DNA of 64,000 bases from Eledone cirrhosa. Lineage: Eukaryota. The translations under genes were made by a program, and so were the position numbers. The stretch is from NCBI GenBank assembly GCA_964016885.1, contig OZ024764.1:12214001-12278000 (forward strand), in the 5' to 3' direction. Below the pieces are notes generated by a model. That model saw nothing but the letters and a program-made list of their open reading frames with translations, had not been told where the DNA came from and did not search any database. Positions 21,691 to 61,253 of this stretch are shown here, piece after piece (the stretch's first letter is position 1; every line of letters begins with the position of its first letter).

Positions 21691-21870
21691 CACACACTCA
21701 CACACACACACACACACACACATATATATATATAAGTAGAAGGGATATTTAATTTGTTGGAAGTCCGACAAACATAAATGTTTATAACTGATTTAGAGCA
21801 CTCAACAGTTTACTGGAGTAAATATTCAATGATATTAAATAAATGGAAACTATATTTATAAAACCATATT

Positions 21871-21934
21871 TATTTTATTATATATATTTCAAGGGTACCA
21901 AGACAACATTGGTGCGCTTTCATCAGATAAAATA
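21871..21934 (-). ncRNA. Type I hammerhead ribozyme, family H1
   Basis: UAUUUUAU-CUGAUGA-AAG C GCACCAA..UUGGUAC C CUU-GAAA-UAUAUAUA-AUAAAAUA. Confidence 0.82.
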
Positions 21935-22047
21935 CAAAGTTTGTTTTATAAATAGAGACATACCCATGAAAATCATACCTTAGGTGAATTTCCAACCGAT
22001 AAGGTATGATTTTCATGGGTATGTCTCTATTTATGAAACAAACTTTG

Positions 22048-22112
22048 TATTTTATCTGATGAAAGTGCACCAATGTTGTCTTGGTTGTCCTTGAAATATA
22101 TATAATAAAATA
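22048..22112 (+). ncRNA. Type I hammerhead ribozyme, family H1
   Basis: TATTTTAT-CTGATGA-AAG..ACCAA..TTGGT..CTT-GAAA-TATATATA-ATAAAATA; perfect 8-bp stem I. Confidence 0.82.
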
Positions 22113-22311
22113 AATATGGTTTTATAAATATAGTTTCCATTTATTTAATATCATTGTGTGTATATATATATATATATATATATATACAAAATTAAGATAA
22201 ATCAAATGAATTTAATCTAAATCAAAATTATGGGTGTCATGCCAGAAAGACATGCACCATATCACCCGCAAAATAAGCTCTATGATTCTAACGAGTAGGT
22301 CCGAGCATTTT

Positions 22312-22543
22312 ATAATAACTAGAAATTGATTAACATATATATAAACATGAATAATCACAGAGATAATTTTTACAAGTGTGTAAGCACACATAGCTAGGTA
22401 GGTAACTAAATAAAGTTGACTAGAACTTCAAAAATAGATACTTTATAATATGATTAATCATATTATAAGGTTTCTATTTCGTAAAAAATATCTCCTGTGA
22501 TTATTCATGTTTATTTATATGTTAATCAATTTCTAGTTATTAT
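22312..22543. repeat. Inverted repeat, ~60-bp arms
   Basis: ATAATAACTAGAAATTGATTAACATA..CACAG mirrored by CTGTGATTATTC..TCTAGTTATTAT. Confidence 0.8.
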
Positions 22544-23246
22544 ATATATATATATATATATATTAGGACAAAAGGTCAGGCATTATAATATCGCTAAAAA
22601 TAGCATATATATATATATATATGCTATTCTTTGCTTAAACTTTAATCTGTTATTTTAATAAATATTTGCTCTACGGTTCTTATATATTTGATATATATTT
22701 ATCCTTATCGAGCCCTCTTTGGATTTTAGTCTTCAAATTTATTATTATTACTATATATATATATATATATATATATATATATATATATATATATATATAT
22801 ATATAAAAATTAGAAATTATGAATTATAAGAATTAGAAATTAGAAATTATAAGCTTATAAGCTTTCTAAAATACGGTGAAAGCTTATAATTTCTAATTTC
22901 TAATTTTCAAACTCGCGCACCGTTTCAAAAACATACTTACATGTTTACATTTATAATTTGCTTGTATATATATATATATATATATATATATATATATATA
23001 TATATATATATATATATATATATATATATATATATATCATTGCTAACTGCTAATTAGAAGAAGTCAACGAAGAGTATAACAAAAATGTGTTTACAGTTTT
23101 TCACTTTCGTCCTGAAACTGGTATTGAAACTAGAAATACGTTATTTCCAATATGACAACCCTAACGGTTTTCTAAGGGCTTCTTACCTCTATTTCCTTTT
23201 TTTTTATATAATATTTTTTTTTATTATTCAATTATTTTTTGAATAT

Positions 23247-24860
23247 AAGTTGTTGTTGTTGTTGTGGTGGTTGTTGTTGTGGTTGTTCTGGTTGTTGTGG
23301 TTGTTGTAGTGGCTGTTGTAGTGGTTGATGTGGTGGTTGTAGTGGTTGTTGTTGTGGTTGTTGTTGTTGTTGTGGTTGTTGTAGTGGTTGTTGTTGTTGT
23401 TGTAGTGGTTGTCGTAGGGGCTGTTGTGGTTGTTGTTGTGGTTGTTGTGGTTGTTGTAGTGGTTGTTGTTGTTGTTGTTGTGGTTGTTGTAGTGGTTGTT
23501 GTTGTTGTGGTGGTGTTTTGTGGTTGTTGTTGTTATTGTTGTGGTTGTTGTTGTGGTTGTTGGGGTTGTAGTTGTTGTTATGGCTACTGTTGTTGTAGTT
23601 GGTGGTTTTTATTGTTGTTGTCATGGTGTTTGTTGTTGTTGTAGTTGTCCAAAATGATAATTATTTTCAGTTATTAGCATCTTAATTGGTGGTATAATTA
23701 TCAACGTCATCATAATGACCACCACCACCACCATCACCACCGCCTCCACCACCATCACCATCACCACCACCACCACCACCACCGCCACCGCCACCACCAC
23801 CACCATCATCATAGCCACCATTGTCACTACATCATCATCATCACCATCATCATCACCATCACCGCCATCATCATCATCACCATCATCATCACCACCATCA
23901 CCACCATCATCATCATCATCACCATCATCACCATCATCACCATCATCATCACCATCATCATCACCATCACCATCATCACCATCACCATCATCACCATCAC
24001 CATCATCACCATCATCATCATCACCATCACCATCACCATCACCACCACCATCAACATCACCATGGTCGTCATCGTTTGTTATAGGAATCATCTTTATTGT
24101 CATCATCATCATCATCATCGTGCCCACAAACCATCAACATAGTGGTGATGATGATGATACTTCGTCTTAATGGAACTGACTCATCGGTAGACAGGCAACT
24201 TTCGTCATGACGATGGTGGTGGTGGTGGTGGTGGTGTTGGTGGTGGTGGTGGTGGTGGTGGTGGTGGTGGTGGTGGTGATGGTGGTGGTGGTGGTGGTGG
24301 TGATGTTAGTTGTCTTGGTGGAAGGGCTGATGATAATGGTGGAGATGGTGGTATTGATGATAATCTTGATGGTGATGATGGTGATGGTGGTGATGATGGT
24401 TGTGGTGGTGGTGGTGGTGATGATGATGGTGGTGGTGGCGATTATAGCGATGATGGTTACGAGGATGGTGATGACGTTAGTTCTTGCAGTGACAGTAGTG
24501 GTGGTGGTGGTGGTGGTGGGGGGGGGATGATCCATCACCGGAAATAGCCTTAAGGTTTTTCGGTTCTCACCACGGGAAGTCACTGTTGCTTGATTAACTG
24601 CCCATGGTACTACTACTACTTCTACTACTACTACTACTACTACTACTACTACTACTACTACTACTACTTCTACTACTACTACTTCTACTACTACTACTAC
24701 TACTACGTCTACTACTACCGCTACTACTACCACCACCACTACTAATACTACCACCACCACTACTACTACTACTACTACTACTACTACTACTACTACTACT
24801 ACTACTACCACCACCACTACTAATACTACCACTACTAATACTACTACTACTACTACTGAT
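23247..24860. repeat. Cluster of trinucleotide repeats (GTT)n, (CAC/CAT)n, (GGT)n, (CTA)n
   Basis: Direct inspection. Confidence 0.92.
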
Positions 24861-59567: not shown

Positions 59568-59845
59568 TGTAGGTGGTGAGTTTTATTGTAGTACAATAAA
59601 GGAATGCAGATATCGGATAAGAAGCACTCTACAGTTTGTAGGACTGGAGTATACATAATATATAAGATCAAAAGATGGTTATATGTTGATTTAAAACTGC
59701 ACTATCCACAAGTGTTTTTAACCTTCATATCATGTCTTCCTATTTTATCTGATGAAAACACAAATGTTATTGCATGATGATATTTGTTTTTGAAATGCGC
59801 ATAATAAAATACATGGAACTCATTTAACCATCTTTTGATCTTATA
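59568..59845. mobile_element. H2 ribozyme element (short inverted tail plus forward arm)
   Basis: Minus arm 59568-59680; forward arm from ATATGTTGATTT at 59681. Confidence 0.8.
59741..59811 (+). ncRNA. Type I hammerhead ribozyme, family H2
   Basis: TATTTTAT-CTGATGA-AAAC..TTTT-GAAATGCGCATA-ATAAAATA. Confidence 0.82.
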
Positions 59846-60364
59846 TATATACATATATATATATATATATATATATACATACATATATATATATGTGTGT
59901 GTGTGTGTGTGTGTATTTATATTTATACATATATGTGTGTGTGTATATTCTCTCTCTCGTCTGCGTCTTCACAGAACTTATGTTTACCGAATTCGCAGAC
60001 CAGACCCCTTCTTCTTCCTCCCGTTAGACCTGTGCGAAATTCCTTCCTTGCTCACATTTCAACCAGGTCTGATGGTCTTTATTCTCTAGTTCACGATTTT
60101 ATCGAGTTTATATTCATAGAAATCTGGGACTTGTCTCTTTCTTCTCACTTTCTGTTGCTTAAACCATTTTGTTTGTTCACCCTAACGTTCTCTTTATTTA
60201 CGTGTCCCAACGACTTTTTTTAGCCGTTGTTCGCACCAACCTGAGGTATATGGCCCTTAAAGCGATGAAATGCCTAGGACGGTTGGAGGGTCACTGATGA
60301 AGGACTCACTTTTTTATATATATATATATATATATATATATATATATATATATATATATCAAAG

Positions 60365-60487
60365 GTTAGAAACTCAAAGTAGTCTCTTACAATAAAATAG
60401 CTCAAGGAAAGAGATTTTTCCCAGCCATATATTATAATCTCTTTCCTAGAGCTACTTTATTGTAAGAGACTATTTTGAGTTTCTAAC
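60365..60487. repeat. Inverted repeat, ~52-bp arms
   Basis: GTTAGAAACTCAAA.TAGTCTCTTACAATAAA.TAGCTC.AGGAAAGAGATT mirrored. Confidence 0.8.
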
Positions 60488-60702
60488 TCAATATATACCT
60501 TTGATATATTCTAACTCAACATATACCTTTGATATATTCGGCTCTGTTAATTTGTCGATAAATGTTGAGTAAATTTGGCTGCTATTTTTTAGTGGTGTGA
60601 GTTTGTGAGACACGCTAGGTTCTGATACCCTCTGCGTTATTATATATACGCTCACTATTCAGTTTTCTGAGATATTTAGAAGCGAGGAGTTTACTAATTT
60701 TA

Positions 60703-60780
60703 CACCCACTGATGAGCAATAATTGATAATCCTCTTCACAATTAATTTGTGAAACACCATTACCAAACGCTGTCTGGGTG
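60703..60780 (+). ncRNA. Type I hammerhead ribozyme with GUC triplet
   Basis: CACCCA-CTGATGA-GCAA TAATTG..CAATTA..TTGT-GAA-ACA..TGT-C-TGGGTG; predicted cleavage after 60774. Confidence 0.8.
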
Positions 60781-61000
60781 ATTGGTAGTTACCACAAATC
60801 CGGTTGGTATTTATTTTTTTTATTTATTCTTAAATTGAGTCTGGCAAACCCTATTGTCCATAGTTAGTATCTTTTTCACCCTAGCGAATCTGGTCCCTTA
60901 GGATTTGAACATATATATGTATATATCTATGTTTATCTCTCTTTTATATTCTATTATAATATATATATATATATATATATATATATATATATATATATAT

Positions 61001-61253
61001 AAGTAGAAGGGGTATTTAATTTGTTGGAAGTCCGACAAATATAAATGTTTATAACTGATATAGAGCACTCAACAACATACTGGAGAATATCCAACCGATA
61101 AGGTATGATTTTCATGGGTTTGTCTCTATTTATAAAACAAACTTTGTATTTTATCTGATGAAAGCGCACCAATGTGTCTTGGTACCCTTAAAATATATAT
61201 ATTAAAATAAATATGGTTTTCTAAATATAGTTTCCATTTATTTAACATCATTG
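61001..61253. mobile_element. H1 element with inactivated HHR (61147-61209)
   Basis: Inverted tail 61001-61089; forward arm from TCCAACCGATAAGG at 61090; GAAA mutated to AAAA (G12A). Confidence 0.75.

Follow-up and report, generated by a model that had tools for sequence, protein, structure and literature searches.

Penelope-like elements (PLEs) of the Hydra clade are the closest described relatives of the sequences analysed here. In the accessible text of PMC8557442, these endonuclease-bearing (EN+) elements have one open reading frame (ORF), which combines a reverse transcriptase (RT) with a C-terminal GIY-YIG-type region and carries the motifs RLRW, DKT, CxCX5C, CxxC and CxH; a hammerhead ribozyme lies in their terminal repeats (pLTRs), they insert into (TA)n, and they form tandem and inverted structures with a tail on one side only. 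Inverted 5'-truncated copies, one-sided tails and the (TA)n bias are established in that source, and the formation of these structures is called an open question; the published explanation that we found is self-priming on an antisense template (PMC3846280, available in part). These Hydra-clade features are shared by the elements whose repeats occur in a 64,000-nt stretch of the Eledone cirrhosa genome (assembly GCA_964016885.1, contig OZ024764.1, positions 12,214,001 to 12,278,000; hereafter the window), where small head-to-head repeats of the families H1, H2 and H3 lie in (TA)n microsatellites. A sequence-only reading of the window had proposed for them a Penelope-like origin and a reproducible mode of insertion, with a defined RNA end and priming at (TA)n on both target strands.

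In L1 twin priming, a single RNA serves both 3' ends of the target as template, and microhomology joins the resulting cDNAs; the position of the second primer is opportunistic there and the two pieces have no overlap, whereas the loci described here have two fixed presumed priming sites and arms that are copies of one and the same stretch. Among PLEs, in vitro work on the Poseidon element PAc of Anolis showed that RT begins at two internal sites, that both strands are extended and that insertion does not depend on the hammerhead (PMC11167929). As in our reading of the present loci, the two starts bracket the tail, both strands are cut and extended, the target is AT-rich and uncleaved hammerhead RNA serves as substrate. 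PAc belongs to another clade, however, and its starts lie within the ORF, compared with 80-170 nt before the ATG here; the available part of that paper reports no strand difference in start site and draws no connection between the two starts and head-to-head pairs. In Adineta vaga, Penelope copies show head-to-head pLTRs, a tail on one arm, palindromic junctions, target duplications of 8-10 bp and an Inr-like motif in the pLTR (PMC3846280), all of which have counterparts here. The self-priming on an antisense template put forward in the accessible part of that work differs from our reading, and pure self-priming is contradicted by the arm lengths in 40 of 67 loci (see below). The available parts of two further papers (PMC3681739 and PMC13282606) contained no information on mechanism.

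The 3.0-Gb genome contains 8,293 exact matches to a 29-nt word taken from the H2 tail, against none for the reversed control, and 972 to a 25-nt word from the H1 tail. Two H2 tails lying 3.7 kb apart led to a tandem copy (L061), in which two pLTRs corresponding to H2, 3,710 nt apart, flank an open frame of 808 amino acids; in L103 the distance is 3,681 nt. An upstream spacer of ~0.9 kb accounts for the length of this 3.7-kb unit, which compares with generally under 3 kb in the Hydra clade, a tendency and not a definition in the text available (PMC8557442). All parent coordinates below refer to L061: the A of ATATG is +1, the predicted hammerhead cut falls after +125, a proximal end lies at ~+170, a distal end at +260/261, and the ATG at +344.

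The nearly invariant feature of the loci is the pairing of their 3' ends. From the first 100 tail matches listed, at the start of one contig (C1), 80 H2 matches were taken blind to the other arm, and arm classes were assigned by hand from BLAST coordinates. Four continue into the ORF, being the 5' pLTRs of tandems; the other 76 end at +260/261 in a microsatellite, and 67 of these have a head-to-head partner. Wherever the partner's end was visible, it stopped at the proximal site (62/62), that is, each of these loci combines one distal with one proximal end, ~90 nt apart. Because a tail-anchored sample cannot show tail-less pairs, a second sample was anchored at +1 with a preceding G. Both ends were determined for 35 of its 40 arms (two of them settled by BLAST coordinates), and all 35 loci have one proximal and one distal end. 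In H1, where the partner end was visible in 15 of 30 long-arm loci, the same combination was found in 13 of the 15, and it is also seen in L182-L186, L187, L188 and L189. These results show that the one-sided tail is a near-strict pairing of two fixed 3' ends, and they bear out the reproducible pattern suggested from the window, although this pairing rule itself had escaped the sequence-only reading. Between the two end sites lies a TACTCCA..GAGTGC motif that is conserved across five families in the window; in six tails, RNAalifold found no covarying pair that would indicate a stem.

The 5' starts behave differently. Within the window, ATATGTTGATTT occurs only at 29680, 48547 and 59681, the starts of the three H2 forward arms, all of which end in TTTTG[A/T]TCTTATA adjoining (TA)n; the inverted left arms share a tail of ~88-93 nt and are truncated at different points (Table 1), just as had been described. 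Genome-wide, the supposedly fixed forward start turned out to be a hot spot only. Of the 67 H2 loci, 21 have a forward arm starting at +1, 15 one that starts downstream of it and 31 one that starts upstream; the corresponding numbers for the tail arms are 18, 25 and 24. Nevertheless, +1 is a strong hot spot, in line with a defined RNA 5' end. This end is not the hammerhead cut: 39 of the 134 arm starts fall at +1, compared with 4 at +120..+130. The pattern seen in the window, a truncated tail arm facing a forward arm at +1, occurs in 8/67 H2 loci and its mirror image in 4/67, hence the variable arm is not always the tailed one as had been claimed. Arms passing +1 run into the true upstream sequence and the ORF of the parent with no wrap-round, and therefore give no sign of a circular RNA template. 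For H1, the common end at CATTG was confirmed, but the forward arms begin 7 nt earlier than the 21991 and 61090 first given, at 21984 and 61083, or ~+9 from the 5' end of the family. Starts of this family cluster at +1 to +9 (a search pattern that left out read-through copies), with +7..+9 in 29 of 100 listed rows judged by eye, as in both window copies; in a second listing, 72 of 100 listed rows were read-through.

In both families, +1 is the A of a pyrimidine-C-A context, which fits the initiator consensus. The parent has C at -1. Genome-wide, ATATG is preceded by G in 2,570 arms and by A or T in 2,352, the latter counted with a search pattern that carried one additional constraint; the ratio G:(A+T) of ~1.1, against 0.27 expected from base composition, makes G about four times commoner than predicted. 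A control site near +68 gave 144 non-parental bases. Among 100 listed H2 arms preceded by C or G and classified by eye, 69 were read-through, 13 carried the G and 18 had a junction C. In 40 G arms, likewise judged by eye, the partner leaves the G unexplained in 13 and the G belongs to the junction microhomology in another 13; of the rest, 6 are ambiguous at a perfect centre, 4 have a fold-back insert and 4 are of other kinds (one a point mutation). In H1, G was found by eye in 16 of 31 non-C arms reaching +1. An extra G is likewise present at full-length 5' ends of L1, where the accessible part of PMC11702581 treats it as a mark of full-length insertions and attributes it to the cap. Given the initiator-like context and the frequent extra G, the ATATG at +1 is probably a capped transcription start and not a ribozyme cut. 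Separately, at L174/L175 ORF sequence stands ahead of a G-marked +1 arm on the same strand, which looks as if the cDNA had jumped from the cap to another template.

We further compared the two arms of each locus. In 21 loci the arms differ at 1.24 positions within a locus and at 7.3 between loci, which assigns the two arms of a locus to one source lineage; the other 49 of these 70 loci do not have both arms through +1. An earlier comparison of 30 full palindromes, a near-identical set, gave 0.7 and 1.0 differences. The 5' class of one arm depends strongly on that of its partner (chi-square p 1.5e-10), and a partner at +1 was found for 0/24 read-through tail arms and 1/31 read-through forward arms (Fisher p 1.4e-5 and 5e-5). 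Of the 67 H2 loci, 40 have a forward arm that extends further 5' than the tail arm, 11 show the opposite, and in 16 both reach equally far. Nine of the 25 truncated tail arms stop at +155..181 (p 0.005); stops near the proximal site would be expected if the tail cDNA met the other cDNA there. Concerning the target, pure (TA) runs of at least 8 nt adjoin the left side of 103/115 loci and the right side of 93/115. Of 17 informative loci, 5 have an exact target duplication of 10 nt, and lengths of 6, 8 and 12 nt were noted once each; over all loci the 10-nt duplication was seen in 10/115, against 0-5 in shuffles. The 10-nt duplications, to be compared with the 8-10 bp known for PLEs in the available part of PMC3846280, weakly support a pre-existing target. 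Contigs of public runs, which may come from the assembly's own sample, also contain no fewer than 10 distinct tail-arm ends whose junction lies at +1 or at most 4 nt away from it. In three of the 115 loci (L010, L051 and L058; shuffles 0-2), the left flank recurs on the right as its reverse complement over 16-30 nt outside the TA run, and at L088 ~195 nt of foreign sequence with its own palindrome has been captured at the head-to-head junction.

The parent protein has 37 homologues. YRDDG is invariant across 35 aligned sequences, and the motifs YRDD, DKT (as HSDKT), CxCX5C, CxxC and CxH are conserved among the homologues; C657, C659, C665, C757, C760, E763, N776, C785 and H787 are invariant in 12 sequences. 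The parent copy reads RLRWIA where the majority of homologues has RWKA. A GIY-YIG Pfam match was obtained for 2 of 12 aligned members (best E 1.3e-4) and PF00078 was found in one homologue. Because the parent protein itself has no significant match in Pfam, NCBIfam or PDB sequences, its domain assignment rests on motifs and homologues. H1 ORF pieces (L188) carry the same Hydra-type motifs. With C-terminal EN-type motifs and hammerheads present, the elements fall outside Naiad and Chlamys, which have an N-terminal EN and no canonical hammerhead. Judged by their sequence, then, H1 and H2 are the terminal repeats of Hydra-clade PLEs, which agrees with the origin proposed earlier. They can be classed as new families of this known clade with longer tails, ~90 nt compared with the 30-40 bp given in the accessible text of PMC8557442, from which they also differ in their thousands of copies and in reading RWI for RWK.

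The ribozymes of the window are predicted to be type I hammerhead motifs with a palindromic helix III. Twelve putative cores were found (CUGANGA..[G]AAA with TGCGCA or TATATA/TATGTA), and a hammerhead of this kind is described in the pLTRs of metazoan PLEs in the part of PMC4209133 available. A search of the window at Rfam gathering thresholds returned no match, and monomer folds were mostly no better than those of shuffled sequences. The divergent ribozyme pairs described at 21, 48 and 52 kb are indeed there (Table 1). In L061, the full-length PLE is adjoined at its 5' end by broken helicase-like frames with a GTGKT motif (5266-7425, minus strand), presumably a Helitron piece. Right after its ORF, the PLE has a (CA)n(TA)n tract of its own (1630-1720, minus strand), a possible target at which the element might insert into itself and form tandems.

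How could such loci arise? In the best explanation, which we consider probable, a single RNA is primed twice, at different sites and from the two strands of the target; priming on both strands had already been suggested in the sequence-only reading. Transcription from the pLTR initiator (+1, the A of ATATG, in H2; the +1 to +9 cluster in H1) would yield a capped RNA. The RT/GIY-YIG protein would bind the conserved motif ~180-200 nt into the pLTR RNA and nick both (TA)n strands, in some cases ~10 nt apart. Each freed 3' end would then prime on the same RNA, one at the proximal (~+170) and one at the distal site (+260/261), in line with the observed end pairing, and the tail would be the stretch between the two priming sites. 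Each cDNA would either reach the cap and add a C, read as the extra G, or stop early, the distal one more often. The two cDNA 3' ends would be joined head to head by microhomology or short fill-in, a repair route consistent with the junctions observed. Priming at the pLTR next to the cap would give short palindromes such as those of the window, and a read-through tandem transcript, if primed at its downstream pLTR, would give long arms and full-length copies. The hammerhead would be copied uncleaved and would not set the ends.

Several observations weigh against this double priming on one RNA. All unbiased samples were drawn from a single contig (C1), and their classes were assigned manually. 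Two insertions are distal+distal (an H2 copy beside L076 and the H1 locus L225), 9 of the 76 H2 tail arms have no partner or a complex one, and 24 of 100 listed A/T-preceded +1 arms adjoin (TA)n directly, that is, are single-arm copies. Twelve of the 17 informative flanks lack the 10-nt duplication, none of the public-run contigs placed over 59100-61600 reached across the microsatellites or showed an empty site, and AT microhomology confounds the cluster of stops at +155..181. As for the cap, transcription start and cap are deduced from DNA alone, the extra G could be a terminal addition by the RT, at the perfect centres (6/40 G arms) it may be the parent's own -1 base, and one G arm is paired with a long partner (L174). 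Finally, two RNAs from a single donor locus, or gene conversion acting between the arms, could also produce arms of the same lineage.

The first of these possibilities, two-strand priming on two RNA molecules from the same donor locus, one per protomer, is in our view unlikely. It gives the same lineage concordance without strand displacement, accommodates the distal+distal exceptions and L174, and is in keeping with the dimer predicted for the lizard PLE protein in the available part of PMC11167929. By itself, however, it does not explain why 62/62 loci combine a distal with a proximal end, and a read-through donor should also provide +1-primed templates, yet such mixed loci number 0/24 and 1/31. 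Self-priming or fold-back, in which one cDNA, or an antisense RNA as in the accessible part of PMC3846280, copies itself into the second arm, would account for the private variants common to both arms, for the perfect centres (one of which occurs in 272 exact copies) and for the short fold-back inserts at junctions (window 48540, L151, L154 and L179). We nevertheless regard it as improbable, since a copy cannot exceed its template: the tail-less arm reaches further 5' in 40/67 loci while the tail is held by the other arm only, so that most loci cannot have arisen by fold-back of the tail arm. The initiator-like position of the extra G likewise fits a sense, capped template.

Very improbable, in turn, is a non-autonomous palindromic mini-element or retrozyme, possibly circular, that would be copied as a unit and whose short left arms would be later deletions. 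Such an element would explain 40 near-identical full palindromes (96-100% identity) and the hammerheads in both arms, but the search that gave these palindromes favoured full copies, and a palindromic master element, suggested by that first genome search, whose matches were full palindromes only, was rejected by the tail-anchored sampling. Centres differ from locus to locus, identical arms occur in long ORF-bearing copies (L051 and L102) and in short palindromes with different centres (L040, L083 and L092), and the sample already suggests that short palindromes form no clade of their own. Non-LTR retrozymes have type I hammerheads derived from PLE pLTRs, as here, and are described in the accessible part of 10.64898/2026.07.22.740005 as head-to-tail tandem arrays bounded by ribozyme cuts, whereas our loci are head to head and end at +1, ~+170 and +260, with the cut after +125; neither arrays of tandem monomers nor circular permutation turned up among the loci sampled. 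That the loci are segmental duplicates of one insertion, or an assembly artefact, can practically be dismissed. Only the repeat-rich setting speaks for it, whereas the flanks of the window loci, compared with one another after masking of simple repeats, gave no match, and the loci are therefore not segmental duplicates but, as expected at the outset, independent insertions. Without masking, one TA-run match and the overlap between neighbouring flanks were all that was found. The 8,293 tail matches against none for the reversed control, and the junctions in contigs of public runs (possibly from the assembly's own sample), also speak against this view.

Searches of the open literature, subscription papers and supplements lying outside it, gave no prior account of the strict pairing of distal with proximal ends, of the cap-like G at +1 or of the coupled arm lengths; the available text of PMC8557442 gives no end-pairing counts or cap signature. 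Together, these three features argue against the antisense self-priming described in the accessible part of PMC3846280. What makes the open question of how inverted pLTRs and tails form (PMC8557442, in the text available) accessible here is that thousands of young copies yield countable end rules: one distal and one proximal end, a G-marked start and arms that agree. Such rules speak for double priming on a capped RNA of sense polarity and lend themselves to a test in the in vitro system already published for PLEs, so that population-scale evidence makes a mechanistic question testable. Double priming would also explain a large class of small hairpin-forming ribozyme repeats in microsatellites that could be mistaken for miniature inverted-repeat transposable elements (MITEs) or retrozymes. 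Whether head-to-head insertion is the normal PLE product, made by a complex with two active sites that nicks the two (TA)n strands about one helical turn apart, copies one capped RNA into two antisense cDNAs from two fixed sites, one for each strand, and joins these at their ends, is for us an evenly balanced question. If so, an ordinary mRNA would give only a small palindrome, since the priming sites lie at most 260 nt from the cap, and the ORF would be moved only by read-through tandem transcripts; tail, inversion and obligatory tandems would then share one mechanism distinct from target-primed reverse transcription of the long interspersed element (LINE) type.

The coordinates of the window loci are given in Table 1. 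The centre at 48540..48546 is unlike that of 29 other full palindromes printed, and the forward arm at 52 kb is ~35 nt shorter at its end than a sister copy at 55.7 kb.

Table 1. Arms and related head-to-head insertions in the window (window positions; +n, parent coordinates for H2 and family coordinates for H1)
Feature	Positions	Strand	Remarks
H1 tail arm	21734..21983	-	distal 3' end at 21734; hammerhead core 21929-21880
H1 forward arm	21984..22156	+	~+9 of family to proximal end CATTG; core 22053-22103
Further related family, head-to-head insertion	29185..29484	.	tail at right
H2 tail arm	29531..29679	-	5'-truncated at ~+111; hammerhead core incomplete
H2 forward arm	29680..29845	+	+1 to proximal end; hammerhead core 29746-29802
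H2 tail arm	48282..48539	-	reaches +3; hammerhead core 48475-48419
Junction insert, 7 nt	48540..48546	.	partly fold-back of arm end
H2 forward arm	48547..48712	+	+1 to proximal end; hammerhead core 48613-48669
Related family, short head-to-head insertion	49100..49275	.	tail at left; joined downstream of ribozyme
H3 (third related family) tail arm	52049..52334	-	hammerhead core 52238-52187
H3 forward arm	52336..52493	+	after 1-nt palindrome centre; core 52424-52475; short of usual proximal site
H2 tail arm	59567..59680	-	5'-truncated at ~+146
H2 forward arm	59681..59845	+	+1 to proximal end; hammerhead core 59746-59802
H1 tail arm	61001..61082	-	truncation within tail
H1 forward arm	61083..61253	+	~+9 to proximal end; core 61152-61200, GAAA mutated to AAAA

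An inverted-repeat search over the whole window gave an output dominated by (TA)n. Further small repeats were seen beside these loci. At 51862-52021, a short inverted arm, a palindromic centre and a longer arm with ~85 extra bases show the same head-to-head layout in (TA)n; no hammerhead was found in this repeat, pieces of it recur beside many of the loci fetched from the genome, and it is possibly another PLE family. A head-to-head inverted repeat of ~220 nt between TA runs (29885-30108) adjoins the 29.7-kb H2 locus on the right. More small inverted repeats within TA runs lie at 60353-60497 and 52955-53060, the latter with two ribozyme 3' halves meeting at a palindromic centre. Lone arms of related hammerhead-bearing families are found at 5183-5709, 26055-26184 and 55719-55911, where 5183-5275 and 5560-5709 represent a local duplication. 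At 7161-10414, 17327-18201, 36755-38471 and 45934-46513, the window further contains tandem arrays (65, 89 and 20 nt) together with a telomere-type GGGTTA array that is interstitial and degenerate.

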